A stretch of 64,000 nucleotides of DNA, from positions 3,008,001 to 3,072,000 of the forward strand of contig CAXXLQ010000004.1 in NCBI GenBank assembly GCA_963668695.2. Reading direction: 5' to 3'. The position numbers were made by a program, and so were the translations under genes. The stretch's first letter is position 1. Each line of letters begins with the position of its first letter. A model generated the notes under the pieces. The model saw only the letters and a program-made list of their open reading frames with translations, did no database searches and was not told the DNA's origin. This stretch comes from Vicinamibacteria bacterium. GTDB taxonomy: Bacteria; Acidobacteriota; Vicinamibacteria; Marinacidobacterales; Marinacidobacteraceae. This document shows, piece by piece, positions 7,146 to 36,493 of this stretch.

Positions 7146-7360
7146 CAGCCTGTGGCGAAACCCATGCGGCCCAGTTCTCCCGGTGGGGGCTCGCCCGGCG
7201 ATGCATCCCGGCTGAATCACTCCGCTTCGCTTCGTTCCGCGTTGCGTTTCGGTCGAAATACACTCGGTATTCCTCCCTCACGCGCCTTGTCAGCCGGGCG
7301 CCTCGCCCCACCGGGAGAACTGGCCGGGCTCGGCGCTCACCTCGGTTCCACCACAGGCTG
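7146..7360 (+). mobile_element. MITE copy M1 (215 bp; 18-mer at sites A and C)
   Basis: TTAA|CAGCCTGTGGCGAAACC...GGTTCCACCACAGGCTG|TTAA; 18-mer at 7171-7188 and inverted at 7306-7323. Confidence 0.88.
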
Positions 7361-7379
7361 TTAAGGACAGGCGCCGGAT

Positions 7380-7406
7380 GCCCGGCGTACATCCACCGGG
7401 CGCTAC
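7380..7406 (-). repeat. GTAG-type REP-like hairpin
   Basis: Minus strand reads GTAGC-GCCCGG-TGGATGTACG-CCGGGC; only one copy seen. Confidence 0.35.
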
Positions 7407-7455
7407 GGGCTGCGATTTTGCCGGGAGGCGAAGACTTCCCGAGGAGGACAAGAAG

Positions 7456-10332
7456 ATGATCTGGCGAACCTGGATCCGGAACGGCGGGCGCGGATGTTTA
7501 ACAGCCGGTGGCAGAACCCAGGCGGCGTTCGACCGGCGATGCATCCCGCCTGAACCGCGCCGCTATGCGGCGCTCGGCGTTGCGCTTCGGTCGAAATACA
7601 CTCGGTATTCCTCCCTCACGCGCCTTGTCAGTCGCGCGCCTCACCGCTCTCGGCGCTCACCCGGGTTCCACCACAGGCTGTTAACAGCCTGTGGCAAAAC
7701 CCACGCGGCCCAGTTCTCCCGGTGGGGGCTCGACGGGCGATGCATCCCGGCTGAACCGCCCCGCTTCGCGGGGCTCTGCGTTGCGCTTCGGTCGAAATAC
7801 ACCCGGGCCAGTTCTCCCGGTGGGGGCTCCTCCCTCACGCGCCTTGTCAGCCGGGCGCCTCGCCCGTCTCGGCGCTCACGTGGGCTTCACCAAAGGCTGT
7901 TCACGGGGATCCTGGCGGCGGGCGTCGCGACCGCCGGGCCCAGCGCGGCGAGCGCCCAGTCCGAAACCGTCCTCATTCGCGCGCGGACGATCCACACCGT
8001 CACCAGCGGAACCCTTCACGAGGGCGAGATCCTGATCCGGAACGGGATCATCGAGGCGGTCGGCCCGTCCGTGGATGTTCCCGCCGACGCCCGCGTGTAC
8101 GAAGCCCAAGTGGTGATCCCGGGCCTGATCGACGCGCACGCGCACCTCGCCCTGGACCGTTCCGGCCGCTCGCGCATCCCCGGCCCGGTGACCGCCGAAT
8201 GGAAAGCCGTGGAGCACCTGGAGCTGTCGGATCCCATGATCCAGGTGGCGCTCTCCGGAGGCGTGACGTCGCTGGTCACGCGCCCGGGCAGCGGTGTCAT
8301 TTCCAGTGGGCAGTCGGTCGCGCTCAAGTTGAAGCGCATTCCAGGTCCGGAGATGATCCTCAAGCCCTATGTGGACCTGAAGATGGCCGTGCGCCCGCTG
8401 ATCAACCTGCGGCCAGGCGAGACGCCGCAGACGGTGATGGGGTGGTACGCCGCCGCCGACGAGTACTTCCGCCGCGCACAAGCCTATGTGCGAGAGCAGG
8501 AAGCCCGCGCAGCCGGAGCCGGAGCCGGACCGGCGCGTGACGAGCGCCTGGAGGCCTTCGCGGCCGTGATCCGGGGGGAGGTCATGGTCCACGCGCACGC
8601 GCACTATCCGAGCGAGGTGATGATGGTGCTGCGCCTGGCGCGCAAGTACGGCTTCTTCGACCGCTTGGCCCTCGCGCACGCGGAGGAGATCTTCCCGCTC
8701 ACCGAGCTGCTCGCCGGAACCAACATCGTCCCGGTCATCGGTCCGATGATGATCGTCCAGTATTTCAACGATCCAGAGCCCCTGAATCTGCTGAAGGAAC
8801 TCCTGGACGCAGGCGTGCACGCCAGCATCCAGACCGACATGTCGAACCAGCACTTCAAGGACTTCCGCGAGTACGGGGCGTTTCTGGCGCGCCACGGCCT
8901 CACTGACGAACAGGCGCTCGAGGTAATGACAATCAACGGAGCGCGCGCGATGATGCTCGACCACCGGGTGGGCAGCATCGAAGTCGGAAAGGACGCGGAC
9001 CTGGTGCTGCTCGACGGGCATTTCCTCGATCTGACCGCCGACCGGGTGGAGCGCGTGTTCGTGGACGGGCGGCTCGAGTACGAGCGCGACCGCGTGCTCC
9101 AGCCCGAACGACCCCGCGCCGTGGGGCCGTTTACCCCGGTGATCGGGGCGATCACTCCGGACGACGAGGCCTTCGCCATCACGGGCGCGCATGTGTTCAC
9201 CGTGAGCAGCGGCGCAATACACAACGCCACCCTGGTAGTCGAGGACGGCCGGTTCACCCGGGTGGAGGCGGACGCCGCTCCGCCCGCGGGGATGGCGGTC
9301 ATGGACGTAGGGGGCAGGGTGGTCATGCCGGGAACGGTGATCGCGCGCGCTTTTCCCAACGACTGGATCGGCGACCTCAAGTGGCAGGTGCAAAACGACG
9401 AGACCACCGCGCCGGTGGTGCCGGAGATGAACGCCCTGTACGCCGTGGACCCATGGTTTCCGTCGTACCGGGTGAACACGACGATCGGAGTGACCGCGAT
9501 CCACGTCACGCCCGGCACGCGCAATCTGGTGGGCGGCAACGGCGTCGTGGTGAAAACGCCTGGCCTCGACTTCGAGAAGATGGTGCGCCGCGAGCCCGCC
9601 AGCATGGTGTTCGCCCTCACCGCCTCGGCGCTCAGGGAGTGGACGGACGAGGCCGGGGCGCCGCTGACGGTCGAAAGCGCCTCGGCGATGGTCAGAAAGA
9701 CGCTGGACGCCGCACGCAGGTACGCGGAGGCGGAGGAGCCCCAGGAGTACGACGCGCGCCTCGAAGCGCTCCTGCCGCTACTCCGGCGAGAGGTGCCGGC
9801 GATGGTTCATGCGGATCGCGTGGCCGAGATCGAAGAGGCGCTGAGCCTCGCGGAGGACTACGGCCTGAGGCTCGTGATCACCGGCGGAGTGTCGGCGCAC
9901 CGACTGGCCGACCGGCTCGCGGCGGCCGGCGCGGGAGTCATTCTGGGCAACTCCGGGAGCTACGCGTCGGACATCCGCGGGGGTGGTGAGGGCTGGAGCG
10001 TGGAGGGGCCCGCCATCCTGAACCGGGCCGGCGTCAAGGTGGCGTTTTTCGGTCCGGGCGCCTCGCGGCGCGCTTCGCCCATCGGGCGGCTGGGCGGTGA
10101 GCCGATCCTCAACGCGGCGTGGGCCTTCCGCAACGGCGTCCCGGAGGTGGACGCGCTGAGGATGGCGACGCTGCATGCCGCCGAGCTGCTCGACTCGGGC
10201 GATCGGATCGGAAGCATCGAACCGGGCAAGGACGCGGATTTCGTCATTCTGGAAGGGCATCCGTTCGACTACCGGGTGGTGCCGGGGTGGGTGTTCGTGG
10301 ACGGGAGATTGGAGGTGGGCGGTCCTCAGTAA
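7456..10332 (+). CDS. Secreted tandem two-domain amidohydrolase with an in-frame 134-aa MITE-derived insertion
   Basis: RBS GAGGAGG before ATG 7456; PGLIDAHAH, GSIEVGKDADLV, second unit GSIEPGKDADFV; MITE DNA at 7502-7899 is read through. Confidence 0.85.
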   Translation: MIWRTWIRNGGRGCLTAGGRTQAAFDRRCIPPEPRRYAALGVALRSKYTRYSSLTRLVSRAPHRSRRSPGFHHRLLTACGKTHAAQFSRWGLDGRCIPAEPPRFAGLCVALRSKYTRASSPGGGSSLTRLVSRAPRPSRRSRGLHQRLFTGILAAGVATAGPSAASAQSETVLIRARTIHTVTSGTLHEGEILIRNGIIEAVGPSVDVPADARVYEAQVVIPGLIDAHAHLALDRSGRSRIPGPVTAEWKAVEHLELSDPMIQVALSGGVTSLVTRPGSGVISSGQSVALKLKRIPGPEMILKPYVDLKMAVRPLINLRPGETPQTVMGWYAAADEYFRRAQAYVREQEARAAGAGAGPARDERLEAFAAVIRGEVMVHAHAHYPSEVMMVLRLARKYGFFDRLALAHAEEIFPLTELLAGTNIVPVIGPMMIVQYFNDPEPLNLLKELLDAGVHASIQTDMSNQHFKDFREYGAFLARHGLTDEQALEVMTINGARAMMLDHRVGSIEVGKDADLVLLDGHFLDLTADRVERVFVDGRLEYERDRVLQPERPRAVGPFTPVIGAITPDDEAFAITGAHVFTVSSGAIHNATLVVEDGRFTRVEADAAPPAGMAVMDVGGRVVMPGTVIARAFPNDWIGDLKWQVQNDETTAPVVPEMNALYAVDPWFPSYRVNTTIGVTAIHVTPGTRNLVGGNGVVVKTPGLDFEKMVRREPASMVFALTASALREWTDEAGAPLTVESASAMVRKTLDAARRYAEAEEPQEYDARLEALLPLLRREVPAMVHADRVAEIEEALSLAEDYGLRLVITGGVSAHRLADRLAAAGAGVILGNSGSYASDIRGGGEGWSVEGPAILNRAGVKVAFFGPGASRRASPIGRLGGEPILNAAWAFRNGVPEVDALRMATLHAAELLDSGDRIGSIEPGKDADFVILEGHPFDYRVVPGWVFVDGRLEVGGPQ
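7502..7680 (+). mobile_element. MITE copy M2 (179 bp, no 18-mer)
   Basis: TTAA|CAGCCGGTGGCAGAACCC...GGGTTCCACCACAGGCTG|TTAA; defines the empty alleles of sites A, B and C. Confidence 0.88.
7685..7899 (+). mobile_element. MITE copy M3 (215 bp; sites A and B), tandem to M2
   Basis: Shares TTAA 7681-7684 with M2 and ends AAGGCTG|TTCA; 18-mers at 7710-7727 and 7808-7825. Confidence 0.88.
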
Positions 10333-10548
10333 CAGCCTGTGGTGGAACCCGGGTGAGCGCCGAGAACGGCCAGTTCTCCCGGTGGGGGCGAGACGCCCGG
10401 CTGACAAGGCGCGTGAGGGAGGAATACCCAGTGTATTTCGACCGAAACGCAATGCAGAGCGCCGCAAAGTGGCGCGGTTCAGGCGGGATGCATCGCCGCT
10501 CGAGCCCCCACCGGGAGAACTGGGCCGCCTGGGTTTCACCACAGGCTA
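10333..10548 (-). mobile_element. MITE copy M4 (216 bp; sites A and C)
   Basis: Begins directly after the TAA stop (GTAA|CAGCCTGTGGTGGAACCC); 18-mers at 10370-10387 and 10506-10523. Confidence 0.85.
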
Positions 10549-10594
10549 TTCCGCTCGCGAGCGGCGCCTGCCGCACCGCCGGACTTCGCTTCGG

Positions 10595-10932
10595 CGGCGT
10601 GTTCCTGCAACCCACCTACGGCAACACCCTGATGGGGCTTGCTCCGGCGCGCCCGCCGACTCCCGAGGACGGCTACAAGATCGCCTACTACCCCCCGCTG
10701 CCAAGCGCCGTGCTGGAAGTCGTGGATTCCGACACCGGCGAGGTGGTGGACCATGGCGAAACCGGGCGGGTCCGTCTCACCGCGCTCACGCGGGAGTTCT
10801 TCGTCCCCGGTTTCCTTGAGCGCGACGAGGGCGAACGCGAGCCGCCGTGGGGACCCTACGCCTGGGACGGCGTCAGCGGCGTCCGCCCCCTTCGGGCAAC
10901 TCCCCGGCGGCACCACGGTCGGGGTCTACTGA
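10595..10932 (+). pseudogene. Displaced 3' fragment of the EhpF-like gene (diverged copy of 6791-7127)
   Basis: GVFLQPTYGNTLMGLAP...GGTTVGVY*; no 5' part; +1 C frameshift near 10890; differences mostly at third codon positions. Confidence 0.88.
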
Positions 10933-10970
10933 CAGGGAAACCCCGACTTTTCCCAAGGCCGGCTGGGCAA

Positions 10971-11013
10971 GGGAACGCCGGCCTCCGATCGGCATCGCCC
11001 GCCAGAGGCGGGC
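10971..11013 (+). repeat. REP-like double hairpin R1
   Basis: GGGAAC-GCCGG-CCTCCG-ATCGGC-ATC-GCCCGCC-AGA-GGCGGGC; related to R2-R5. Confidence 0.6.
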
Positions 11014-11049
11014 TCGACGCAGAAGCCGCGAGGATGGATGGGACGGTGT

Positions 11050-11880
11050 TCAAATTACGGCGTCGTCCAGCTCGATGATGACCGGAGCGCATGGGGCCCA
11101 GTTTTGGCCCGGCAGCTCGTCAAGCGGCCCGCGGTATTTGAGGTCCACACAAGCGGACGTGACATGAGGAGCGACGCTCTTCGATCCGAGAATCAGATGG
11201 AGCCGGGTGTTGGGATCCGTCGGGGCACCCTTGTAGTGAATCGGCGTACCGGAGTTGAAGCCCGCTTCATCTTCGCTATGAAAGTCACGGTACAGGTCCA
11301 CAAAACCCCCGTCGCACAACGCCTGTAGCGCATCCCGTTCTTCTCTTGACCGGTAGAGCGTGTCAGGTTTGGGCTCGCCGTCCAGAACGACATTGAAATC
11401 CCCGCAGAGGAAGGTCGGCTTCGACCCGTCGTATTGATCGGCGACGTGCTTGGTCAGACCGTCCAACCACTTCACCTTGGACTTGATCGAACGGCGGATC
11501 TGATCTTTGTTCTTGCTGCCATATGGCGCCGCGGGCAGGTAGACGGAGGAGATCCGCAGTCTGCCGGTGTCCACCGTGAGCAATCTTCCATCCGCTTCCC
11601 GGCCAGGCCATCCTCTCTGCAGCACTTCCGGTTCTCGGGCTCCGGTCAGGAGGTCCTGTCGGATCAGGATCGCGACGCTGGCTAGTTCATAGTCGGGGAA
11701 AAGAGCCTCGATGTGGTAGCCGAGATCCGCAATTCTCTGTCTCGGGAACTCCTCCTGCCGTTTGCAGGAGATACGAATCTTCTGCAGTGCGACGATTTCA
11801 GGCTGCCGCTGCTGCAGCCAGTGGTGCAGATACCCGAGTCGTTTGTTCACGCCGTTCACGGACCAGGTTGCGATTTTCAT
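11050..11880 (-). CDS. Exodeoxyribonuclease III/EEP-family protein, divergent
   Basis: MKIATWSVNGV, PEIVALQ, SVYLP, LCGDFNV, FVDLYR; visibly lower GC than its neighbours. Confidence 0.8.
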   Translation of the reverse strand: MKIATWSVNGVNKRLGYLHHWLQQRQPEIVALQKIRISCKRQEEFPRQRIADLGYHIEALFPDYELASVAILIRQDLLTGAREPEVLQRGWPGREADGRLLTVDTGRLRISSVYLPAAPYGSKNKDQIRRSIKSKVKWLDGLTKHVADQYDGSKPTFLCGDFNVVLDGEPKPDTLYRSREERDALQALCDGGFVDLYRDFHSEDEAGFNSGTPIHYKGAPTDPNTRLHLILGSKSVAPHVTSACVDLKYRGPLDELPGQNWAPCAPVIIELDDAVI

Positions 11881-12038
11881 GGATGGATCCTCCCCTCGGA
11901 CTGTCCACCATATGGCTCCAACATGTCAGTTTTTGTCACGGTGCCGGCCGATCCGAGCTGGGGGCGATAACCGGGTCTGCTACAGCGGGACAGAGGTTCG
12001 GCGGACGTGCCGCGGGCAGGGCGGGGGTCTGCGCCGTT

Positions 12039-12085
12039 CCGCGGCGCCGCGCGCCGCGGGTGCCGGTCTGAAGACCGGCGCTCCC
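12039..12085 (-). repeat. REP-like double hairpin R2
   Basis: Minus strand GGGAGC-GCCGGTCT-TC-AGACCGGC-AC-CCGCGGCGC...GCGCCGCGG. Confidence 0.6.
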
Positions 12086-12132
12086 AAGCCGCCGGCGCCA
12101 TCAGCGCAAGTAGCGGTGTTCTGGACGCTCCG

Positions 12133-14160
12133 TCAGTTCGTGGTGGGATGCGTCCGGTACTTGTCGAACCAAGCCACGATGTTGGCGATCTTCGCCATCA
12201 ACTGGCTCGGGCGGCGGCTCATGTCGTGAGACGCGCCGGGCAGCCGGACCACGGCTGTGTCGATCCCGCGGAACTTGAGGGCGTGAAACAGTTGGTACGA
12301 CTCGGATAGCGGCGTCCGGAGATCCTCTTCTCCGGTGACGATCAGGGTCGGCGTCTTCACGTTGCCGGCCAGGGAGAGCGGCGAGAACTTCCAGTAGGGC
12401 TCCGGGTTCTCCCAGGGGAGGCCCTCGTAGCGGCTGAAGTAGTAGCCGTACCAGTTGTCGGCGGTGAGCGTCTTACTGATCCAGTTGACGACCGGTTTCT
12501 GGGCGGCGGCAGCGCGGAAGCGGTCCGTCTTCCCGACGATCCACGCGGTCATGATCCCGCCGGCGCTGCCGCCGGTCACGAAGAGGTTGTCCTCGTCGAC
12601 GTACCCGCGGGCAATCACCGCGTCCACTCCCGACATGAGGTCGTCATAGTCGTTGCCCGGGTAATTGCGGTACAGCAGGTCCCCGAACTCCTCGCCGTAG
12701 CTCGTGCTGCCACGGGGGTTTGCATATAGGACGACGTACCCGGCGGCGGCGAGCAACTGCATCTCCGCGGAGAAGCGGTCGCCGTAGTTGGAGATCGGCC
12801 CGCCGTGGATCTCGAGAATCAGCGGGTACCGGCGCCCCGGATCGAAGTCGGGCGGTTTGACGATCCAGCCCTGGACCGCGCGGCCGTCGAAGGATGAATC
12901 CCACCAGATCTCCTCGACTTCGCCGAGGTTCCTGCCGGCGAGCAGATCCTCGTTGAGCGAGGTTAGCTGCCGCACCGCGTCACCGGGCATGCCCACCGCG
13001 AGCTCGCCCGGCTGATCCGGGCGGCTCTGGTTGAACGCGAAGGCGCCGGTGTTCGCGACCGAGAACGACCCGCCGCCGTAGGGGCGGCCGTAGGAGGCGC
13101 CGCCAAGGTCCGCCCCCAGAACCGCGAGCTCGCCGTCCAGCGTCACGAAGGCGACCTTCGAGTTGCCCTCGTCGTCATACTGGAAGTAGAGGCGGTGCCC
13201 GTCCGCCGCCCACACCGGATTCGAGACACTCCGGTCCAGGCCGGTCGTGACGACGCGCTGGCCGCTCCCGTCCAGATTCATGACCTGGAGTCGGCTGACC
13301 TGGTAGGTCCGCACCCGGTCCTCGTAGCCCACGAACGCGATCTGCTGCCCGTCGGGAGAGACGGCGGGGCTCTGGTCCGGCCCGTTCCGGTCGGTCAGCG
13401 CGCGGATCTCCCCGCCGGCGACCGGCGCAATGTAGAGATCCGAGTTGCGGTAGTCGTGCACCCAGTCGGGGTTGCGGTTCGAGGAGAAGACGAGGTGCCG
13501 GCCGTCCGGCGTCCAGGCGGCGGGACTCGAGTGTTGAAAGTCGCCCGAAGTGACCTGCACCGGCGTACCGCCTTCGACCGGGAGAACGAAGAGGTGGCTG
13601 TAACCGAAGTCGAGATAGCCCACCCCGTCCTGGCGGTTCTTGAAGCGGTCCTCCATGATCGGAGGATCAGCCCAGTCGGCGCCGGGGGGCGGTTTCGGGG
13701 GTGGGGCGAGTTGGGGCGGGGGATAGGGCACCAGCATGTTGAACGCGAGGTGGCGGCCCTCGGGCGACCAGCGGATATTTCTCGGCGATTCAAGAAGCTG
13801 GGTGAGGGTGGCCGTCTCGCCGGTATCCATCCAGCGCAGGTGGATCTGGCCGTCCGCGGTGAAGGCGATGCGGGTCCCGTCCGGGGACCAACGAGGTGAC
13901 GAGCCGGCGCTTAGCCGGCGGTGGCCGGTGCCGTCGGCGTTCACGATCCACAGTTCGGGCCGCTGGCGGTCGCGCATGATGTCCATCGAGGTCCGGACAT
14001 AGATGACCTGGCTGCCGTCCGGGGAAATCTGCGGATCCGCCGCGAATTCGAGTTGGAAGACGTCCATGGGCTGGAACGACTCCTGGGCCCCGGAGGAAGC
14101 GGGGCCGATGACGAGGACCAGCGCGGCGGCAAGAAGGTTCGTTCGGTGGATTCCGGGCAT
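12133..14160 (-). CDS. S9 family peptidase (acylaminoacyl/dipeptidyl peptidase), paralog 1
   Basis: Signal peptide, TolB-like repeats (WSPDG), IHGGP, NPRGS, GGSAGG, DLRTP, catalytic His (ASHD). Confidence 0.92.
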   Translation of the reverse strand: MPGIHRTNLLAAALVLVIGPASSGAQESFQPMDVFQLEFAADPQISPDGSQVIYVRTSMDIMRDRQRPELWIVNADGTGHRRLSAGSSPRWSPDGTRIAFTADGQIHLRWMDTGETATLTQLLESPRNIRWSPEGRHLAFNMLVPYPPPQLAPPPKPPPGADWADPPIMEDRFKNRQDGVGYLDFGYSHLFVLPVEGGTPVQVTSGDFQHSSPAAWTPDGRHLVFSSNRNPDWVHDYRNSDLYIAPVAGGEIRALTDRNGPDQSPAVSPDGQQIAFVGYEDRVRTYQVSRLQVMNLDGSGQRVVTTGLDRSVSNPVWAADGHRLYFQYDDEGNSKVAFVTLDGELAVLGADLGGASYGRPYGGGSFSVANTGAFAFNQSRPDQPGELAVGMPGDAVRQLTSLNEDLLAGRNLGEVEEIWWDSSFDGRAVQGWIVKPPDFDPGRRYPLILEIHGGPISNYGDRFSAEMQLLAAAGYVVLYANPRGSTSYGEEFGDLLYRNYPGNDYDDLMSGVDAVIARGYVDEDNLFVTGGSAGGIMTAWIVGKTDRFRAAAAQKPVVNWISKTLTADNWYGYYFSRYEGLPWENPEPYWKFSPLSLAGNVKTPTLIVTGEEDLRTPLSESYQLFHALKFRGIDTAVVRLPGASHDMSRRPSQLMAKIANIVAWFDKYRTHPTTN

Positions 14161-14172
14161 GTTTCGACTCTC

Positions 14173-14211
14173 GGGTTCGGGTTCGGTTGGGTTTGGGTTT
14201 GGGTTTGGGGG
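14173..14211 (+). repeat. (GGGTTY)n hexamer microsatellite
   Basis: GGGTTCGGGTTCGGTTGGGTTTGGGTTTGGGTTTGGGGG in the spacer between the two S9 genes. Confidence 0.75.
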
Positions 14212-14244
14212 AGAAGCTCTGCAACTTACCAGAGGCTTGCGGGA

Positions 14245-16320: not shown

Positions 16321-16425
16321 TGTGCGACTCTTCGATTCAGGGTGAGGGGCAGGCTCTCCAAGTACGAAAGCCCGACCTACGCATCATGACGGAGTGGCGG
16401 CACTATGGCCATGCGCACCCGCTAG

Positions 16426-16657
16426 CAGCCTGTGGTGGAACCCGGGTGAGCGCCGAGGCCGCCAGTTCTCCCGGTGGGGGGAGGCGCCCGGCTGACAAGG
16501 CGCGTGAGGGAGGAGCCCCCACCGGGAGAACTGGCCCGGGTGTATTTCGACCGAAACGCAACGACGAGCGGCGCGAAGCGACGCGGTTCAGCCGGGATGG
16601 ATCGCCGGCCGAGCCCCCACCGGGAGAACTGGGCCGCGCGGGTTTCATTACAGGCTG
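16426..16657 (-). mobile_element. MITE copy M5 (232 bp; sites A, B and C)
   Basis: CTAG|CAGCCTGTGGTGGAACCC...TTACAGGCTG; 18-mers at 16462-16479, 16517-16534 and 16615-16632. Confidence 0.87.
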
Positions 16658-16661
16658 TTTG

Positions 16662-16801
16662 GGCGGGATGCATCGCCGGCCGTTTCCGGAGCGGGGCGCA
16701 AGCACCGCGTAGACCCCGGAGCGGAAAGGACGGGGGGCGGGACCACCCGACCCCCATCCCTTCTTGGCTCGGGAACGCCGCCGGGGTTTCACCACCGGCG
16801 G
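16662..16801 (-). mobile_element. Partial MITE copy M5b with a different insert of about 91 bp
   Basis: GGCGGGATGCATCGCCGG and AACGCCGCCGGGGTTTCACCACCGGCGG|CTAA match the MITE left arm and are separated by unrelated hairpin DNA at 16683-16773. Confidence 0.65.
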
Positions 16802-16817
16802 CTAAACTCCGTCGCCC

Positions 16818-18239: not shown

Positions 18240-18244
18240 GAGGC

Positions 18245-18949: not shown

Positions 18950-19365
18950 CAGCCGGTGAACAGAGTCACGCGGCCCAGTTCTCCCGGTGGGGGCTCGGCC
19001 GGCGACGCATTCCGGCTGAAACGCTTTGCTTCGCATCGCTCATCGTTGCGCTTCGGTCGAAATACACTCGGGCCAGTTCTCCCGGTGGGGGCTCCTCCCT
19101 CGCGCGCCTTGTGAGCCGGGCGCCTCACCGGCATCGGCGCTAGCAGCCCGTGGTGAAACCCAAGCGGCGTTCGAGCGGCGATCCATCCCGCCTGAACCGC
19201 GCCGCTTTGCGGCGCTCTGCGTTGCGTTTCGGTCGAAATACACTCGGGCCAGTTCTCCCGGTGGGGGCTCCTCCCTCACGCGCCTTGTCAGCCGGGCGCC
19301 TCGCCGCTCTCGGCGCTCACCCGGGTTCCACCACAGGCTGCTAACGTCACTCTGTCCACAGACTG
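18950..19365 (+). mobile_element. MITE copy M6 (second TIR subtype; sites A and B), interrupted by M7
   Basis: TTAG|CAGCCGGTGAACAGAGTCACG...CGTCACTCTGTCCACAGACTG|CTAA; 215 bp once M7 and 4 bp are removed; 18-mers at 18975-18992 and 19073-19090. Confidence 0.85.
19144..19340 (+). mobile_element. MITE copy M7 (197 bp; site B only), nested in M6
   Basis: CTAG|CAGCCCGTGGTGAAACCC...CCACAGGCTG|CTAA; 18-mer at 19249-19266. Confidence 0.87.
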
Positions 19366-26748: not shown

Positions 26749-26844
26749 CGTGATCCCTCCCGAAGGGCGGAGCGAGTCTATCCGGCGCCCCGGAGGCGGC
26801 GTCAGCGAGGGAAGCGCCGGCCGGGGCGGATAGGATTTCCCGCC

Positions 26845-29028: not shown

Positions 29029-29117
29029 AGCCGGATCGCTGCTCGGGACCCGTTTGGGCCGCCCGATGGTCCTGGGCGGCCCGAGGTGACGCCGTCTTCG
29101 GCTGATCCCCGCGTCGA

Positions 29118-30026
29118 ATGCGCAAGTTCCTGGCGTTCGCCGCCGTCTATCTGATCTGGGGATCCACCTATCTCGCGATCAGCGTCGGGGTCCGGGATGT
29201 GCCGCCCTTCCTGATGGCCGGAGTCCGCTTCCTGACCGCTGGAGCGATTCTTTTTCTCTTCGCGAGGCGCGGAGAAGCGCCCCTCACGCGACGGGAATGG
29301 GCGGAAGCAGGGCTCGCCGGGCTCCTCTTCTTCACCTCGGCCCACGGCCTCGGGCACTGGGCCCAGGTTCGCATTCCGTCGGGCGTCGCCGCGGTGCTGG
29401 TGGCGACGGTGGTCTTCTGGATCACTGGCCTGGACGCCGCGTTCGTAACCCGCCGCCTACCCAAGGCGATTCCCGTGCTCTGCATTCTGGCCGGTTTTGG
29501 CGGGGTGGTGGTGCTGGTTGCACCCTGGCGTTCGGAGGCAGGGCTCGATCCGGCGGGAGTCATTGCGATGCTGGCGGCCCCAATCGCCTGGGCGACGGCG
29601 AGTCTCTGGTCGCGTCGGGCCACGATGCCCCGCTGCCTCCCGCTCTCGGCGGGTGCGCAGATGCTCGTTGGGGGGGCCGCCCTGCTTTTGGTGGGGACCG
29701 CCGCCGGGAACTGGCAGGCGCTCTCGCTATCGGAGGTCGGCCTGCCCGCTCTCGGTGCCTTGCTCTACCTCGTCGTGTTCGGCTCCATCGTGGCGTTTGT
29801 CGCTTACACCTGGCTCCTTTCCCACGTTGAACCCGCGCTGGCCACCACCTACGCCTTCGTCAACCCGCTGATCGCCGTCCTGCTGGGATGGCTGATTCTG
29901 AGCGAGGAACTTTCGCCCCGGATGTGGCTCGCGCTCGCCTTGATCGTGATGCCCGTGGCGCTCTTGCAGTGGAACGAGGCGCGGCTCCGGGCGGCCATCG
30001 CGGTCGGCCTTCGGGGCCCGGCCTAA
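29118..30026 (+). CDS. EamA/DMT family transporter
   Basis: VYLIWGSTYLAI, about 10 transmembrane helices, TYAFVNPLIAVLLG. Confidence 0.9.
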   Translation: MRKFLAFAAVYLIWGSTYLAISVGVRDVPPFLMAGVRFLTAGAILFLFARRGEAPLTRREWAEAGLAGLLFFTSAHGLGHWAQVRIPSGVAAVLVATVVFWITGLDAAFVTRRLPKAIPVLCILAGFGGVVVLVAPWRSEAGLDPAGVIAMLAAPIAWATASLWSRRATMPRCLPLSAGAQMLVGGAALLLVGTAAGNWQALSLSEVGLPALGALLYLVVFGSIVAFVAYTWLLSHVEPALATTYAFVNPLIAVLLGWLILSEELSPRMWLALALIVMPVALLQWNEARLRAAIAVGLRGPA

Positions 30027-30113
30027 CCACCACCTCGGGGACTGCTGCACACGGCGGACGCCGCCCGGCGCCCGCGTCGGCCCGGCTTCCGCTAGCGCCG
30101 GATGCGCGCTGGA

Positions 30114-31211
30114 TCAGAAGAGAAACTTGTGGTCGAAGTCCGGGATGCGGCCCGCCTCGATGAGGACAATCCAATCCCGAAGATCGTCCTCACCGCGCTC
30201 CCAAAGATCCAGGCACAGCTCCAGGTAGCGCAGCACCGTCTCGGTCTCTCCACGCTCCAGCAGGGCCTTGGCGAGCGCCATGTCCGGCCCTCCGTACCTC
30301 CGTGGTGGAGCCCCCTGCGTTCGCGCTGCCGCAAGGAGCCGGGCGCCGGCCTCTTCCTGGTTGCCTTCAGCCAAGGCGATGCGACCCAAGACGAGGTTCG
30401 CATAGTGAATGTAGGTCCCCTTGTTTCGATCGCCCGCAAACGCAGCGAGCATGGCCTCTGCATAGCCGCTGGCTTTCTCTAACGCGCCCGCGGCAAAGGC
30501 GGCTACTGCGAGATCCGGCATCAGGTCTGCGCAGCCCTCCGCATCTGACAGTTCATAGGCGCGCTCGAAGTCGGCGAGCGCCAGGGCAGCGGTCGCGGCG
30601 TCGGTGTCTTCATAGGGATTGTGGGCCTCGCGCCAGCGATTGCGCCCCAGTTGCCGGGCCCAATACGGATTCGAAGGTTCGAGCGCCTCGGCGCGTCCGA
30701 GGAATTCAACCGCCAGATTCTTGTCGCTCAAACTCAGGAAGCGCGACGCATGCCTTAGCAGCACGACGTTCTCGGATTCGTCATCGATCAGTCGCAGCCA
30801 CGCCTGTTTCGCCGCCGCGTAACCCTCGGGGTCAAAGAAGGGCACGATGCGCGCTGCGGCGCTTTCGAAGAGTTCCGACTCGGGAGCGTTCCGGATGAAC
30901 CAGAGAAGGTGCCGCGAGTGCTCTTCCGAGGCTGATCGCTGCTGCGCACGGTAGTAGCCAAGGAGCTGGGAGCGGGCGACCAGGTTCTGAGGGTTCTCAG
31001 TGAGTTGCTGTTCAAGCGCGGCGGCCTGCATCGCCGTGAGTTCCGCGCCCTTGATCGCTTCCTCGCGGAGGTCCTGAGCCGACGCCGGCGTCGCGATCAG
31101 CGCCAAGATCACCAGTGCGCAGGCAACGCGCCGCCATCCGAGTGACCGGGTGAGCCTCCCCACGAAGAAATGCCGGGATAGCCGCTGTCTCGTGAGCATG
31201 GGGGTAAACAT
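30114..31211 (-). CDS. Secreted TPR-like helical protein, paralog B
   Basis: TGATG coupling to the upstream paralog; signal peptide ASA-Q; HYANLVLGRIALAEG, GPDMALAKALLERGE. Confidence 0.75.
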   Translation of the reverse strand: MFTPMLTRQRLSRHFFVGRLTRSLGWRRVACALVILALIATPASAQDLREEAIKGAELTAMQAAALEQQLTENPQNLVARSQLLGYYRAQQRSASEEHSRHLLWFIRNAPESELFESAAARIVPFFDPEGYAAAKQAWLRLIDDESENVVLLRHASRFLSLSDKNLAVEFLGRAEALEPSNPYWARQLGRNRWREAHNPYEDTDAATAALALADFERAYELSDAEGCADLMPDLAVAAFAAGALEKASGYAEAMLAAFAGDRNKGTYIHYANLVLGRIALAEGNQEEAGARLLAAARTQGAPPRRYGGPDMALAKALLERGETETVLRYLELCLDLWERGEDDLRDWIVLIEAGRIPDFDHKFLF

Positions 31212-32251
31212 CAGAAGTGGAGGTTGAAGCTGAAGTCGGGTGTCCGTCCGGCCTCGATGAGAACGATCCACTCTTTCAGTCGGCCGCGGTCCATTTCCCA
31301 GAAGTTTCCGCACAACTCCAGATACCGCACCACCGCCCGAGTTTCTCCGTGCTCGAGCAGCTTCTTGGCGAGCGCCATATCCGGCCCGAAGGAATTCAAC
31401 TGGGACGACCCGGGAGTCTGGCCCGCTGCAATCAGGCGGGCGCGGGCCTCTTCCAAATCACCGTCTGCAAGAGCGAGCCGGCCCAGAATCAGGTTGCCGT
31501 AGTGAATTCGGTTTCCCCCATTCCAGTCGTCGGGGATCGCTTTGAGCATGGCCTCGGCGTAGCCGCGGGCCTTCTCCATTCCGCCGGCGACGAAGGCGGT
31601 CTTCCCTAGATCGTCCAGCAAGCTGCCGCGCTCCAACGCGCTCGCGAGTTCGTAGGCGCGCTCGAAGTCGGCAAGGGCGAGGGCGGCGCCGTCACGGTCC
31701 GATCCCTCAAACGGGTTGTGGGCTTCCAGCCAACGCAAATGCCCACGCTCTTGCGCCCAATGCGGGTTCGACGGATCGAGCTCCCCGCCCCGTGCCAGCA
31801 GTTGGCTGGAAAGCGCGGTATCCGTAAGAGCGAAGAAGTTGGCGGCGTGTTTCAGGAACACCGCATTCCTCGGCTCGTTCTCCAATTGCCTGAGCCAGGC
31901 CTCCTTCGCCTCCGCGTAACCCTCGGGGTCGAACATCGCCATGATTTCTGTTTCCGGCCACTCCAGCACTTCCGATTCGGGAGCGTTCCGGATGAACCAG
32001 AGGACGTGTTGGGTTTGCCGGGTGCGATCGCTGCGGCGCTCCCCGAAGTAGTAGCCCAGCAGCCGCGCACGGGCGTTCAGATCCTGAGGGTTCGCCGTGA
32101 GGTGCTGTTCGAGCGCGGCAGCCTGCTCTGACGTCAGCTCGCGACCTGCGAGCAGTTCGTCGAACAAATCCTCTTCGGAGGCAATACCCGGTGATCCGAA
32201 CAGGATGGGCGCTGTCAGGGCGCCGACCAGGAAAATCCAGCGAAGCGACAT
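31211..32251 (-). CDS. Secreted TPR-like helical protein, paralog A
   Basis: MSLRWIFLVG signal peptide; colinear similarity to 30114-31211 (LWFIRNAPESE, LADFERAYEL, YLELC, WIVLIEAGR). Confidence 0.75.
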   Translation of the reverse strand: MSLRWIFLVGALTAPILFGSPGIASEEDLFDELLAGRELTSEQAAALEQHLTANPQDLNARARLLGYYFGERRSDRTRQTQHVLWFIRNAPESEVLEWPETEIMAMFDPEGYAEAKEAWLRQLENEPRNAVFLKHAANFFALTDTALSSQLLARGGELDPSNPHWAQERGHLRWLEAHNPFEGSDRDGAALALADFERAYELASALERGSLLDDLGKTAFVAGGMEKARGYAEAMLKAIPDDWNGGNRIHYGNLILGRLALADGDLEEARARLIAAGQTPGSSQLNSFGPDMALAKKLLEHGETRAVVRYLELCGNFWEMDRGRLKEWIVLIEAGRTPDFSFNLHF

Positions 32252-32446
32252 GGCAGGCCTCCGGGAAGAGCGAAAGGTACCGAAACGCAAGCAAACCACA
32301 GGCCATGGGGAGCAGGTGGCGCTTTGTCGTCCGGAGGCCGGTGTGTGGTCCGCGGAGAGGGAACCGCGACCTGCGCGGCGCGTAACGTTGACGGTGGGCT
32401 CCGCTTGCGCGAACGTATGGCCTGAATCTCGCAACGACGACTCTCG

Positions 32447-34906
32447 ATGATGACGAAACGCCGGATGGCGGCGTGGATGATGCTGGCGGCCCTCACCGCC
32501 ACCGCAGCGTCGGCCGCATCGCAGCAAGAACCCCGGATGCGGGAGGTCGCCGGACGCGTCACTGATGGCGTGACCGGCGCGCCGGTGGGCGGCGCGACTG
32601 TGACGGCCGGCGATTCGACTGTTTTGACCGCTCCGGATGGGAGTTTCCGGCTACCGGCCGATGATGGTGCGCGGGTGCTCCAGGTGCTGGCGGACGGCTA
32701 TTTCGAAGCCACGGTGCTCGCGAGTGAAACCGGGGAAACCGTCATCGAACTCCTGCCCCGGACCTTCGAAGAAGAGTCCGTCGAGGTAACGGCCGAGGCC
32801 CCCGTGCTGGACCGCCCGGCGGCGACCCGGGTAGCCCCCAAGGAAGTCCTCGAGACTGCCGGCACGGTGGACAACATCTTCCGGGCGCTCGCGACCCTTC
32901 CCGGGGTAGCGCCCACCTCGGACTTCGGAAGCTTCCTTTCGGTGCGCGGCGGGACTCCCGACCAGAACCTGACCCTCATGGACGGGGTGGAGATCCACAA
33001 CCCCTACCGGCTCTTTGGACTGGTCAGCGCTTTCAACCCGGAAACGATCACCGATTTCTCGCTGGTGGCCGGCGGGTTCGGGGCCAAGTACGGCGACCGG
33101 CTCTCTTCGCTGCTGGTGGTTCGCAACCGCCCCGGGCGCCGCGATTTCCAGGGCACCTCTTCGCTGAGCGTCACGGATGGAAACCTCGTTTTCGAAGGAC
33201 CGCTTCCGGGTGGTGGCTCCTGGCTCGCAACGGCCCGCCGGACCTACTACGACGTGGTGGTCGGCCGCGTCCTGGATCAGGATTTTCCCTCGTTCGCAGA
33301 CTTTCAGATCAAGGCGGACTGGGAGTTCGGTCCGGGGCATCGCCTGTCGTTCCTGGGCATCCGCAGCGGGGAGGACACTGATTTCTCCTTTGAAGCCGAG
33401 GACGGGGAAGACGAAGGACGCGTGGACTTCCTGGGCGATGTCGCGAACGAGCTGGGGGCCGTGCGCCTGGACGCACTCCTCTCGGAGCGAGTGACGGCGA
33501 CGACGGTCTTGTCGTGGTACCGGAACACGGAGTTGCTGGACTTCGAGGCCGACATCTACACCGAGAACCGGGTCGTGAACGTTGAAGATTCCGAACGGCA
33601 GGACCTGCTCACCACGATCGGCTTCGACCGGGAGCGGGCGGTCCGCGACCTGGCCCTCCGCCAGGAGCTCGGTGTCCAGTTCGGGGACCGCCACTTCGTC
33701 GAGACCGGATTCGAACTCCACGGGATCGACTCCTCGCTGTACCAGAATGTCCGGGGCCCCAGGAACGAGTCGGAGGCGAATCCCAGCAGTATCCAGGGTG
33801 GTTCCGCGCTCCCCGATCTTCTGGAATCGAACCTTTCCGGGTCACGCGGAGGCGCCTGGATCCAGGACGCCTTCCGGCCCTCGGAACGCTTCACGGTGGA
33901 GCCGGGGCTCCGGCTCGAGTGGAGCACGCTGAACGGCCGGGCGACGCTCTCTCCGCGTTTCGCGGCGGCGTGGGATTTCGGAAGCGGTATCCAGGCCCGC
34001 GCGGCCGGGGGCGCGTACACCCAGAGCCCGGGCTGGGAGAAGCTGACCTCCTCGGACTACTTCCTGGACCTCAACGCGATCGGAGACCTCGCTCACGAAC
34101 GCGCGCACCACGCGGTGGTGGGCCTCGAAAAAACCTTCCCGAACGGGACCCGGCTCCGCGTGGAGGGCTACTGGAAGCGCTTCGAGGACCTGCTCGTCGG
34201 CCGGCTTGAGACCGACGCCGAACGGCTCGCCCGACTCGCCGCATATGACTTTCCCAAGGAACTGGCGCCGAGCGTGCCGACCGCCGCCCGGATCACCATC
34301 AACCCGGTGAACGGGGGCGGGGGCATCGCCCGCGGAATCGACGTCTATCTGGAGAGACTTGACCCCGCAGCCCGGGTGGCCGGGTGGATTTCCTACGCGT
34401 ACGGGAAGTCGGAGCGGGAAACGTACGGCCTGCGCTATCCCTTCGAGTACGACCGGCCCCACGCGCTGAATCTCGTGGGGAGACTCGGTATCACCGATCG
34501 CCTGAGTCTGGCCGCCACCGCCCGGGCGGCGAGCGGGTTTCCCTATACCCCGGCGGTCGGGGTCCGGGTGGCGGCCATCCGCGACGAACGCGATCGGCTC
34601 GTGCCGGAGACCGACGACCAGGGGAACCTCGCCTACGCGGTGGATCTCGGGGGGCTCGAGAACCTGCACCGCGCCCGGCTTCCGCTCTACGCGCGGCTCG
34701 ATCTGCGCCTCACCTACCGCCACGGTGGCCCTGGGGGCCGCTGGTCGGCCTACGCCGAGGCCATCAACGTCCTGAATCGGGACAACGGGGTGGACATCGA
34801 CCAGCGGGTGATGGCGAACCCCGGCGCGGAGCTTCCGACGGTCGAAGAGATCCCCGCCTTCGGGTTTCCGTTCGTCCCGACCATCGGGTTCCGCGTGCGG
34901 TTCTGA
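32447..34906 (+). CDS. TonB-dependent receptor
   Basis: Carboxypeptidase-regulatory-like N-domain, plug motif VRGGTPDQN..LMDG, GGFGAKYGDRLSS, C-terminal Phe. Confidence 0.9.
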   Translation: MMTKRRMAAWMMLAALTATAASAASQQEPRMREVAGRVTDGVTGAPVGGATVTAGDSTVLTAPDGSFRLPADDGARVLQVLADGYFEATVLASETGETVIELLPRTFEEESVEVTAEAPVLDRPAATRVAPKEVLETAGTVDNIFRALATLPGVAPTSDFGSFLSVRGGTPDQNLTLMDGVEIHNPYRLFGLVSAFNPETITDFSLVAGGFGAKYGDRLSSLLVVRNRPGRRDFQGTSSLSVTDGNLVFEGPLPGGGSWLATARRTYYDVVVGRVLDQDFPSFADFQIKADWEFGPGHRLSFLGIRSGEDTDFSFEAEDGEDEGRVDFLGDVANELGAVRLDALLSERVTATTVLSWYRNTELLDFEADIYTENRVVNVEDSERQDLLTTIGFDRERAVRDLALRQELGVQFGDRHFVETGFELHGIDSSLYQNVRGPRNESEANPSSIQGGSALPDLLESNLSGSRGGAWIQDAFRPSERFTVEPGLRLEWSTLNGRATLSPRFAAAWDFGSGIQARAAGGAYTQSPGWEKLTSSDYFLDLNAIGDLAHERAHHAVVGLEKTFPNGTRLRVEGYWKRFEDLLVGRLETDAERLARLAAYDFPKELAPSVPTAARITINPVNGGGGIARGIDVYLERLDPAARVAGWISYAYGKSERETYGLRYPFEYDRPHALNLVGRLGITDRLSLAATARAASGFPYTPAVGVRVAAIRDERDRLVPETDDQGNLAYAVDLGGLENLHRARLPLYARLDLRLTYRHGGPGGRWSAYAEAINVLNRDNGVDIDQRVMANPGAELPTVEEIPAFGFPFVPTIGFRVRF

Positions 34907-34915
34907 CGGGCGGTT

Positions 34916-34993
34916 TCAGGGCCGCGGCCCGCCCGTGCCGAACCCGGTCACGCCGATCCGGCGGGGGACGTAGTGATCGGGATCCACCGTCCG
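34916..34993 (-). pseudogene. Displaced 78-bp copy of the 3' end of the amidohydrolase at 36494-36571
   Basis: Encodes RTVDPDHYVPRRIGVTGFGTGGPRP* against RTVDPDHYIPRRIGVTGFGTGGPRP*. Confidence 0.85.
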
Positions 34994-35025
34994 ACGGCAG
35001 AACCTGCGGCCGTGACCCTCCCGGA

Positions 35026-36120
35026 TCAGTAGCCCACGAAGTCGAGGGCCGGTGATCCGAATCCCGCAATCAGCAGCAGACTGACGGCTCCCACCACTGC
35101 GGCGGCGAAGAGCCCGAAGAGAAACGGACGGAGGCCGATGCGGCGCAGGCCGGCGAAGCTCGACTGCAGCCCCACCCCCGCCATGGCCATGAGCAAACAG
35201 GTTTCGGCTGCATGGCGGAAGAACACAACCGTCTGCCCCCAAACGTCCGGATCGAGAAAACCGAATGGCTGATCCCCGTGATCGCCGAGCGTGCGGAGGG
35301 CGGAGCACGCCGCGAACGCGATCACGAACCAGGGAATCATGCGCAGCCAGGCGCGGGCGCCCGGAGATCCGACCGACCGCGTTTCGCCGAAGAGAATGCC
35401 GGCCAGCGGGATCAACGCCAGCATCGCAAGGTTCCTCACCAGTTTGGTGACGGTGGCGACATCGAGCGCCACCGGAGCGCCGTACTGGGCCTGGTACATC
35501 ACGCCAGCCCCCGCAACCTGGGCGGTTTCGTGGATGGACACCCCGAGGAAAAGTCCGGCAAGTTCCGGCCGGCCGGCAAAGACCGCGTTCGCGAGGATCG
35601 GGTATCCGAACATCGCGGCGATCCCGAACACAGTGATGCAGGAAACGGCGTAGCCGACCTCGGCCTGTTTGGCTCGAATCAACGGCGCGGTAGCGACGAT
35701 CGCGGTGGCCCCACAGATACTCGTCCCGGCTGCGATCAACCCGGCCAGGGTCCGCGAGAGCCCGAGGCGCGGTCCCAGGAGCCGGACCACGCCGACGCCA
35801 GCGACGATTGCCATCACGACGAAGGGCAGGGCCGCCAGGGTGAATCTGCCGGCAGCGAGGAGGCTCAGGCGAAAGCCGAGCAGCACGATGCCGAGGCGCA
35901 GGATCGTGGTCGAACAGAATCGCAGTCCCGGCGTTGTGGTCCGCGCCCAATCGGACACATTGGAGACGACCATGCCGAGGACGATGGCCAGCACGATCGG
36001 GCTGATCGGACTGCCCGAGAGTCCGAGCAGCGACTCCGCGATCCATCGCGCGGAAAACGTGGCGGCTGCCGAGACCAGCGCCGCCAGAGCCAGTCCGGTC
36101 CAGAAGGGGGGCGATCGCAT
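35026..36120 (-). CDS. YeiH/putative sulfate exporter family membrane protein
   Basis: LRLGIVLLG, GTSICGATAI, SIHETAQV, ATVTKLVRN, PWFV, AMAGVGL. Confidence 0.88.
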   Translation of the reverse strand: MRSPPFWTGLALAALVSAAATFSARWIAESLLGLSGSPISPIVLAIVLGMVVSNVSDWARTTTPGLRFCSTTILRLGIVLLGFRLSLLAAGRFTLAALPFVVMAIVAGVGVVRLLGPRLGLSRTLAGLIAAGTSICGATAIVATAPLIRAKQAEVGYAVSCITVFGIAAMFGYPILANAVFAGRPELAGLFLGVSIHETAQVAGAGVMYQAQYGAPVALDVATVTKLVRNLAMLALIPLAGILFGETRSVGSPGARAWLRMIPWFVIAFAACSALRTLGDHGDQPFGFLDPDVWGQTVVFFRHAAETCLLMAMAGVGLQSSFAGLRRIGLRPFLFGLFAAAVVGAVSLLLIAGFGSPALDFVGY

Positions 36121-36259
36121 CGTCTGCTTTGTCCGTTCCCACTCTCGGTGGCGGTTTAGCCTACCCGCACCGTCCCGCCGCCGCATCCGAGGGTGAAGCC
36201 GGGGACGGTGGCGAAACTGGCGCAGTTCCCCTTTCCGCGACGCCGCGGGCGCTGCCTAG

Positions 36260-36493
36260 CAGCCTGTGGATAAAGTGACGTGAGCGCCGAGGCCCCCACC
36301 GGGAGAACTGGCCGGTGAGGCGCCCGGCTGACAAGGCGCGTGAGGGAGGAGCCCCCACCGGGAGAACTGGCCCGGGTGTATTCCGACTGAAACGCAACGC
36401 AGAGCGCCGCAAAGCGGCGCGGTTCAGGCGGGATGCATCGCCGGTCGAGCCCCCACCGGGAGAACTGGGCCGCGTGACTCTGTCCACAGGCTG
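36260..36493 (-). mobile_element. MITE copy M8 (234 bp; second TIR subtype; sites A, B and a flipped C)
   Basis: CTAG|CAGCCTGTGGATAAAGTGACG...CGTGACTCTGTCCACAGGCTG|CTAG; 18-mers at 36294-36311, 36353-36370 and 36451-36468. Confidence 0.88.

Follow-up and report, generated by a model that had tools for sequence, protein, structure and literature searches.

How can one short DNA word, identical down to its last nucleotide, come to lie in varying combinations and in both orientations inside repeat copies whose own sequences have diverged? This question is raised by a 64-kb stretch of the genome (G000) of an uncultured Vicinamibacteria bacterium, referred to here as the window (C4:3008001-3072000), in which the 18-mer CCAGTTCTCCCGGTGGGG (the unit, written [u] in allele formulae) occurs 15 times within copies of a miniature inverted-repeat transposable element (MITE). 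The initial annotation attributed the pattern to repeated, targeted writing of the 18-mer at individual loci, and listed as candidates a micro-element, the excision scar of an insertion sequence (IS), a templated insertion and gene conversion. The evidence assembled below favours an explanation in three layers, which we regard as probable though by no means certain: a very small repeat module housed in MITEs, shuffling of this module among MITE copies by conversion, and rare insertions that founded its sites.

An invariant unit in two repeat hosts

All 15 copies in the window are free of mismatches and lie at the starts and on the strands first reported; no further copy was found in the window at up to two mismatches (chance expectation 0.01). 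The unit is not a local peculiarity, as a search of the whole genome (4.10 Mb in four contigs, 66.5-68.2% G+C, 91.7% complete) recovered 1288 exact copies, 278 with one mismatch and 65 with two. A single variant, T6>C (denoted v), accounts for 156 of the 278 one-mismatch units. The unit is the commonest 18-mer of the genome, the runner-up having 444 copies. It is asymmetric rather than palindromic and forms no hairpin, folding alone or with its flanks at -1.7 to -3.7 kcal/mol (z -0.30 to +0.94 relative to shuffled sequences). Its immediate neighbours are strongly biased, with G at -2 in 92% of cases, C or G at -1, G at +1 in 87% and C at +2 in 87%. The 1631 units with up to two mismatches group into 601 clusters of up to 15 units each, among whose preferred spacings is an 18-nt head-to-tail arrangement (151 times); the other recurrent spacings correspond to fixed backbone pieces of 7, 31 or 80 nt. 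A clustered regularly interspaced short palindromic repeat (CRISPR) array was rejected on these grounds, the spacings being either 0 nt or such fixed pieces and not unique spacers.

Units are tied to repeats. For 1309 of the 1631, a MITE core or terminal inverted repeat (TIR) is no more than 170 nt away, and only 17 of 1630 have flanks that are not repeated elsewhere in the genome; a DNA uptake sequence (of the DUS/USS type) was rejected on this basis. Most of the remaining units occupy a second, unrelated host, a family of hairpins resembling repetitive extragenic palindromic (REP) sequences, e.g. GCCGGTCTGAAGACCGGC, whose alleles read CGGTCT when empty and (C/T)GG[u]GCCT when filled. The first impression that the unit is confined to MITE copies therefore describes the majority of units, but not those in the hairpins. 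The genome's single IS110-family element (L113, C4:482100-483880) also lies within a hairpin of this second repeat family, much as IS110/IS1111 elements are placed in proteobacterial REPs.

The unit recurs in the same contexts across many independently assembled records, produced with different assemblers and platforms, and was found in at least 120 metagenome stretches as well as in contigs of sequencing runs from several studies. Of 23 read runs listed, four (three DNA-type and one RNA) were examined, as contigs ending at repeats; some runs containing the window are labelled sponge metagenome.

The host MITE

The principal host is a TIR MITE of 179 nt (185 nt including its TAA/TTA ends) with TTAA/CTAG (YTAR-type) targets. 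Its TIR of ~20 nt, TAACAGCCkGTGGTGrAACC, has 1090 TIR-like matches in the genome, which include 358 inward-facing adjacent pairs. The lengths of these 358 elements cluster at 185, 203/204, 221/222, 239/240, 257/258 and 275/276, a ladder of 185+18n that includes the 3 nt of TAA/TTA at each end and becomes 179+18n without them. Length tracks the number of units held (n = 0-5), and the relation 179+18n, proposed from the eight copies of the window, holds genome-wide. Left and right ends vary in concert (r2 up to 0.75), and the element as a whole is a long imperfect palindrome.

Both ends of the MITE are bordered by TTAA, CTAG or CTAA, and unoccupied target sites are found in the relatives G001, G004 and G008; in one example, ggTTAAca in G001 corresponds to TTAA-element-TTAA in G004 and G000. 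When 66 elements located in C4:2.65-3.40 Mb were compared with G004 or G008, the relative had an empty MITE site in 34 of 59 syntenic comparisons. Because relatives retain such empty sites, the host is an ordinary TIR MITE that has been recently active and is still moving between sister species. MITE orientation in the genome shows no replication-strand bias. No autonomous IS with MITE ends was found in this 91.7% complete genome: no TIR pair encloses a transposase, none of the seven DDE_Tnp_1 or four DDE_3 loci has MITE ends, and the PF13359 profile gave no match. An IS630-family element with TIR TGTGGTGTCCCGCAAAT (L115, C4:about 667000-668200) is located where two MITE copies join at CTAG, and a second IS630-family copy (L114) also adjoins CTAG; the ends of both differ from those of the MITE. 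Throughout the genome, a left-end MITE module (TIR, unit and ~30 nt; period 71 nt) and right-hand modules are tandemly multiplied, forming arrays of up to 1.2 kb with up to 15 units, e.g. at C4:1273600-1274490.

Fixed sites with two-state alleles

To place the units, 311 MITE elements of the genome were oriented and, with units removed, positions were expressed in backbone coordinates. Five main sites emerge: A at position 28 (+, 108 copies), X at 62 (-, 28 copies), B at 108 (+, about 124 copies), C at 139 (-, about 180 copies, often doubled) and D at 146 (-, about 86 copies), with rare sites at 44 (+), 72 (-) and 149 (+). What had been described as a single site C proves to be two sites, 7 nt apart, at positions 139 and 146, and a spacing of 25 nt between units represents C beside D. 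Orientation is fixed at each site and matches that of the nearer TIR at four of the five main sites; the 3' half of the unit resembles the TIR core CCGGTGG, as read from the sequence.

Every site is either filled or empty throughout the genome, with no intermediates. The empty and filled alleles read GGCGTTC and GGC[u]GCTC at site A, GGTATTC and GGG[u]GCTC at site B, and GCGGCGC and GCG[u]GGGC at site X. Site C is GGCGCCC when empty, GGC[u]GTCC when single and GGC[u][u]GCCC when double, and site D, where filling adds 19 nt, is CGG(T/G/C)GA or CGG[u]GCGA. By comparison with empty paralogs and orthologs, filling adds 18 nt at the other sites; the insertion point follows CGG, GGC or GCG, and 0-3 nt are replaced. 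The change of flank that had been noticed at site B in the window (GG-TAT-TCC empty, GG-G[18]GC-TCC filled) is thus a strictly two-state difference genome-wide. Partial and stuttered units also exist, and a flipped core between the inverted units B and C was not seen among common contexts.

The unit is exact in 88% of cases, as compared with 75% of 175 copies for the best 18-nt window of the backbone and a backbone median of only 19%. The initial description of the backbones as diverged accordingly fits the median, but divergence is not uniform along the element. Between sites B and C (positions 110-135, e.g. window 7271-7296) lies a core, TCCTCCCTCACGCGCCTTGTCAGCC, which reads ...TGACAAGGCGCGTGAGGGAGGA on the reverse strand and is exact in 75% of copies; it is nearly as conserved as the unit and may have a function of its own.

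Turnover of occupancy and the copying of alleles

Occupancy of a site is tightly associated with the adjacent 1-3 nt (r2 0.88-0.97) and hardly with other single-nucleotide polymorphisms (SNPs) of the backbone (r2 at most 0.21), whereas neighbouring backbone SNPs are linked to each other with r2 of 0.4-0.9. Pairs of copies differ in occupancy in 36% of cases at 0-2 backbone differences, in 54% at 3-5 and in 75% at 6-8, reaching a plateau at about 82%. At the extreme, pairs with no difference over 181 nt contrast no unit with A+B+C+C, and tight backbone clusters mix patterns, such as ABCC seven times and no unit three times alongside B, AC and BC. Between sister species, all four of the orthologous pairs aligned differ in occupancy; in one of them (e49), the copy in G000 holds no unit and that in G004 holds X+B+C, on backbones that are about 98% identical and with allele-specific flank changes at each site. 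Since identical or near-identical backbones differ by as many as three or four units, occupancy must turn over fast, and simple vertical descent, already judged insufficient from the window alone, is inadequate for the genome as well.

The flanks reveal what kind of turnover this is. A single unit at position 139 nearly always reads GGAC[u] and a double one GGGC[u][u], the flank [u]GT is found at one site only, and of the 156 T6>C copies about 85 lie at one place, the inner position of a doubled C site. Such allele-specific markers recur at unrelated loci, including orthologous loci that flipped after speciation. Since no block that might plausibly be written would include them, their recurrence indicates that most flips copy existing alleles, which speaks against the 18-mer being written anew at every locus, as first envisaged. 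The combinatorial pattern would therefore most likely reflect gene conversion among the ~600 MITE copies, supplemented by transposition of the MITE itself; of the candidates named at the outset, it is conversion that fits this shuffling. Where copies differ by several units together (0 versus 3, 0 versus 4), the difference is compatible with a single conversion tract covering most of the element.

Contexts in other genomes

Founding of the filled alleles poses a separate question, which can be approached through the range of contexts that the unit occupies. A comparison of 2195 units (1566 from G000 and 629 from loci of other genomes or metagenomes) yielded 173 context classes, 43 of which have at least three members. 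With each of these 43 classes counted once, the flank preference persists: G at -2 in 32, G or C at -1 in 42, G at +1 in 40 and C at +2 in 32. Some contexts are peculiar to other genera. In G019, the site cggcgatgc[u]gccccggctgaac (site E), unused in G000 and occurring also in G018, accounts for 20 of 24 sampled units. G018 additionally holds units within the conserved MITE core and, in 10 of 26 sampled cases, units nested in units; these read CCAGTTCTCCCGG-[u]-GC-GGG, exactly the form expected had the block taken the place of TG in the CCGG^TG of another unit. A scan for nested units at prefix lengths of 5 to 17 returned forms at 13 (five cases) and 11 (one case) only.

The numbers of MITE cores and units are 55 and 1 in G020, 95 and 15 in G010, 0 and 17 in G023, and 22 and 259 in G018; unit and MITE abundance thus vary independently and are separable. 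Every one of the 15 genomes of the genus has the exact unit, as do four of six other genera of the family; it was not found in 16 genomes of two sister families. Organism-named records that contain it are metagenome-assembled genomes (MAGs) labelled Acidobacteria, Vicinamibacteria or Candidatus Marinacidobacterium. Single copies without repeat contexts in Georgenia, Pseudarthrobacter and an Acidimicrobiaceae MAG would most likely be chance matches, a match in a 'Gammaproteobacteria' MAG has a REP-like context, and viral contigs gave one unrelated chance match only. On this comparison of sequences, conversion cannot explain how the block first entered dozens of contexts or how it has been kept identical across genera. 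The micro-element suggested by the initial annotation fits these founding events, with their many contexts and nested copies.

The search for a mover, a template or a known family

Several enzymes that might move or write the unit were sought. In G000, profiles for RAYT (Y1_Tnp, PF01797; the control profile matches 6 of 14 known genomes) and for reverse transcriptase (RVT_1, PF00078; genome 91.7% complete) gave no match. With PF00078 absent, the reverse transcriptase-based systems (diversity-generating retroelements, retrons and group II introns) were rejected, and a reverse-transcribed insertion, one of the mechanisms first suggested, loses its enzyme. The suggested IS excision scar fares no better, no IS with unit-bearing ends having been found. 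IS110 was rejected as a mover, as its one copy in G000 resides in a REP-like hairpin rather than in the unit and its presence does not correlate with unit abundance across 25 genomes (a tally that takes in G033). Vsr, considered since several targets read CCGG^T, was not found in the unit-rich genomes G000, G001 and G004.

No single-copy locus bearing a unit, and hence eligible as a template, was found, and the sole unit of G020 lies inside a MITE. A word resembling the unit (C4:61069 and 3834977, two mismatches) stands in a unique context; it was rejected as an RNA template, being located in or at the end of an open reading frame (ORF) of a duplicated gene. No Rfam family reached gathering score on the window; matches were at chance level on 7100-7950 and lacking on four other loci. 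Literature searches for the 18-mer, its complement or 'Marinacidobacterium' gave no match, and only to that extent can the unit be called undescribed.

Models for the origin and spread of the unit

The three-layer explanation that we favour sees in the 18-mer the core of a dispersed repeat module of very small size, ~22 nt long with its conserved flanks (G-S-[18]-G-C), which resides in other non-coding repeats of uncultured Acidobacteriota represented by Vicinamibacteria-type MAGs. Its first layer, which the sequences themselves show, is the mobile TTAA/CTAG MITE carrying the unit at a few fixed positions and orientations, with 18 nt added on filling (19 nt at one site). In the second layer, suggested by the allele-specific flank markers, templated copying among the ~600 MITE copies would shuffle occupancy, with conversion acting preferentially between near-identical copies, often at several sites at once, and MITE transposition contributing as well. 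Alleles of single origin, filled or empty, would in this way be reshuffled faster than point mutations build up. In the third layer, each filled allele would go back to a rare event in which the module entered a short G/C-rich target, right after CGG, GGC or GCG, and replaced 0-3 nt, often a T. Dozens of such foundings would have taken place in the history of the family, in different repeats, at genus-specific sites and, in one genus, inside units themselves. That different genera share an identical word speaks for its maintenance by selection, and the selected unit would most likely be the recognition site of a protein, either its mover or a DNA-binding protein of the host.

A number of observations weigh against this explanation. 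Among near-identical copies, SNPs within 12 nt of sites that differ in occupancy are not enriched at A (0.120 versus 0.136), B (0.123 versus 0.122) or C (0.160 versus 0.153), enrichment being seen at X only; this counts against ordinary conversion, as tracts from diverged donors would enrich SNPs. The result fits only on the assumption that donors usually belong to the same subfamily, which is plausible since recombination needs near-identity. The backbone core, moreover, is nearly as conserved as the unit. With regard to founding, no insertion event has been seen directly, and every founding could in principle be a replication template switch. Ongoing fresh insertion in G000 is not demonstrated, given that the same prefix scan found no nested units there and that only 17 of 1630 flanks are non-repeated. 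Finally, the searches described above identified no enzyme, template or binding protein for the unit.

A bolder model, which we consider unlikely but worth serious attention, holds that the block of 18-22 nt is itself the mobile element and the smallest known. A sequence-specific enzyme, common to this family of sponge-associated Acidobacteriota, would cut after CGG or GGC and paste the block into repeats and, in one genus, into its own copies, whilst the MITE pattern would be a footprint amplified by conversion.

A second alternative dispenses with an enzyme. Template switches during replication or repair, whether microhomology-mediated or by quasi-palindrome correction, would have founded the filled alleles, which conversion and MITE amplification would then have multiplied. 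The host lends itself to such events, being a long imperfect palindrome with co-varying ends on whose opposite arms the units stand inverted and pair perfectly; existing units have CGG or GGC in their left flank, as do the targets, junctions lack 0-3 nt, and partial and stuttered units occur. Template switching would, however, be expected to copy variable lengths, yet 43 contexts have the same 18-nt boundaries. Nor do sites A and D occupy mirror positions in the hairpin, and the identity of the word across genera is left without explanation. We hold this model to be improbable.

Lower again in probability is a model without any insertion, in which an ancestral composite MITE already held the units, later precise loss and recombination produced the present patterns, and the word is conserved only as a protein-binding site. 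Loss without a template cannot make TAT from G[u]GC, and units nested within units cannot be ancestral. The occurrence of the unit in an unrelated hairpin family, and in a genome with 17 units and no MITE core (G023), is equally difficult to accommodate, as are the genus-specific sites (E in G019 and G018, core-internal in G018) and the single unit that accompanies 55 cores in G020. The model does draw some credit from the few discrete alleles at each site, from the conserved backbone core, which shows that parts of the MITE are constrained in any case, and from the agreement of unit orientation with the nearer TIR at four of five main sites, together with the likeness of the 3' half to CCGGTGG.

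Improbable, and ranked behind these models, is an active dedicated writer, integrase-like, RNA-templated or oligonucleotide-inserting, that would place, and perhaps remove, the 18-22-nt block de novo and so cause most of the differences in occupancy. Clean +18 steps, identical backbones with 0 versus 3-4 units, the absence of co-converted flanking SNPs at sites A, B and C, nested copies at one precise internal position in G018 and the flank rule G-S-[u]-G-C over 43 contexts would all be natural products of such an activity. A writer would not, however, be expected to reproduce at independent loci markers that lie outside the block (GGAC[u] versus GGGC[u][u]; [u]GT at one site) or to distribute T6>C according to position. 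Neither RVT_1 nor Y1_Tnp was found in the 91.7% complete genome, IS110 and Vsr do not track unit abundance, and no single-copy template locus is available, the only copy in G020 being within a MITE.

That the unit is an artefact of adapters, primers or assembly is scarcely conceivable: nothing speaks for it, and its presence in 21 of 41 related genomes, in independent assemblies and in the metagenomes excludes it, disposing also of the adapter raised in the initial annotation.

MITE copies within the window

The occupancy originally tabulated for the eight MITE copies stands, and each can now be set against its locus in relatives (element bounds exclude the duplicated target). M1 (7146..7360, +; 215 nt, i.e. 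179+36), with TIRs CAGCCTGTGG.../...CCACAGGCTG, is bordered by TTAA at 7142-7145 and 7361-7364, and its site is empty in relatives; its units lie at site A, backbone position 28 (7171..7188, +), and at site D, position 146 (7306..7323, -). M2 (7502..7680, +; 179 nt) holds no unit and lies within the 5' part of an ORF starting at 7456. It has the TTAA at 7681-7684 in common with M3 (7685..7899, +; 215 nt), which is filled at site A (7710..7727, +) and at site B, position 108 (7808..7825, +). M4 (10333..10548, -; 216 nt), located at the TAA stop of the ORF 7378..10332 and absent here from G001, G004 and G008, is a reversed element with units at site D (10370..10387, +) and site A (10506..10523, -).

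M5 (16426..16657, -; 232 nt), also reversed, corresponds to an empty CTAA site in G004 and carries units at a D-like site (16462..16479, +), site B (16517..16534, -) and site A (16615..16632, -). M6 (18950..19365, +) is split into 18950-19139 and 19345-19365 by M7 (19144..19340, +; 197 nt, i.e. 179+18), which is nested in it at CTAG/CTAA. Sites A (18975..18992, +) and B (19073..19090, +) of M6 and site B (19249..19266, +) of M7 are filled. The ortholog of M6 in G004 is uninterrupted and has an additional unit at site C (139), whilst G001 lacks both M6 and M7. M8 (36260..36493, -; 234 nt) holds units at the rare site at position 149 (36294..36311, -), co-oriented with A and B in a form that occurs three times in the genome, at site B (36353..36370, -) and at site A (36451..36468, -); at this locus G004 and G008 have a copy of another TIR subtype, in which both TIRs differ, with other unit sites. 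The G008 orthologs of M6 and M8 have internal deletions that end at units, which indicates that the unit also serves as a short repeat for deletion.

M2 and M3 have a bearing on the gene in which they lie. In relatives, the start ATG of the ORF corresponds to window position 7456 and the TTAA target lies ~14 codons in. The two elements and one target duplication add 402 nt to the ORF 7456-10332 of G000, and the frame remains open through both to 10332; a MITE with its duplication measures 183 nt and a unit 18 nt, both multiples of three. M4 sits exactly at the TAA stop (10330-10332), which relatives share without the element. The window further contains direct repeats at 7000-7128/10804-10933 (86+47 nt, 97% and 89% identical) and at 12152-12451/14261-14560 (300 nt, 85% identical), which resemble portions or 3' ends of paralogous genes and not MITEs.

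Relationship to known repeats and significance

We know of no mechanism for mobile DNA shorter than about 50 nt, and to our knowledge the only described case, unexplained since 2008, is that of the cyanobacterial small dispersed repeats (SDRs), for which we know of no mobilising enzyme. SDRs are also found nested in other repeats and in MITE-like contexts, are partly palindromic, and were reportedly first described by Elhai et al. in 2008 (Genome Res 18:1484). Of the kinds of repeat described so far, they would be the closest to the unit, the likeness being one of description. Those of heterocystous cyanobacteria are presented in one account as some 20 bp long elements that "might be mobile" (PMC2884548), and SDR5, of 21 nt, is described as precisely inserted into HIP1, between its third and fourth nucleotides (PMC4390886, PMC13756078); the function of SDR5 is given as unknown in passages that include PMC3116915. 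Like the unit, SDRs are words of ~20 nt, dispersed in high copy number and precisely inserted at a short specific target, including within repeats. In contrast to SDRs, the unit belongs to Acidobacteriota and not to cyanobacteria, has no relation to HIP1, is shorter (18 nt) and is not palindromic, and its spread would be mostly attributable to conversion among host MITEs.

Length classes defined by the presence or absence of an internal module are also a feature of the pneumococcal BOX, ERIC and Correia repeats. Here, unlike in those families, the optional module is one 18-mer, which occupies at least five sites, in either orientation, and is present in another repeat family too. The REP, BIME and REPIN-RAYT repeats of proteobacteria resemble the unit in being short, hyper-abundant intergenic words that form mosaics together with other motifs, in alternating orientation, as portrayed in sections of PMC2817692. 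REPs are targets of IS110-type elements, as is the accompanying REP-like hairpin here with its IS110-family copy. The unit differs in having no hairpin, in the lack of a Y1_Tnp/RAYT gene in G000, in mosaics built on a TIR MITE and in the absence of the GTAG or CGTC head that a passage of PMC3733652 gives as a REP feature.

A further parallel is offered by Neisseria's intergenic mosaic elements (NIMEs), in which, in the portions of PMC1797815 devoted to them, the 20-bp dRS3 word occurs in hundreds of copies interleaved with repeat modules of ~50-150 bp. According to the same portions, the arrays differ between strains at syntenic places, and dRS3, which has 6-bp terminal inverted repeats around a variable centre, is hypothesised to be a recombinase site (PMC1797815). 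The unit, unlike dRS3, is invariant and asymmetric, and its copies are housed in one defined MITE instead of bordering RS modules of varied kinds; neither inversion nor cassette exchange between units was seen among common contexts.

The system thus provides a second, independent and cleaner example beside SDRs, with an invariant word, an exact +18 ladder and hundreds of paired filled and empty sites. It further offers sister species with flipped orthologous loci, a genus with nested copies, and relatives that have the MITE but almost no units, and with these contrasts the question of mechanism becomes tractable. The system also shows the speed at which gene conversion can reshuffle small repeats, which bears on the use of such repeats as strain markers and on the assembly of symbiont genomes.

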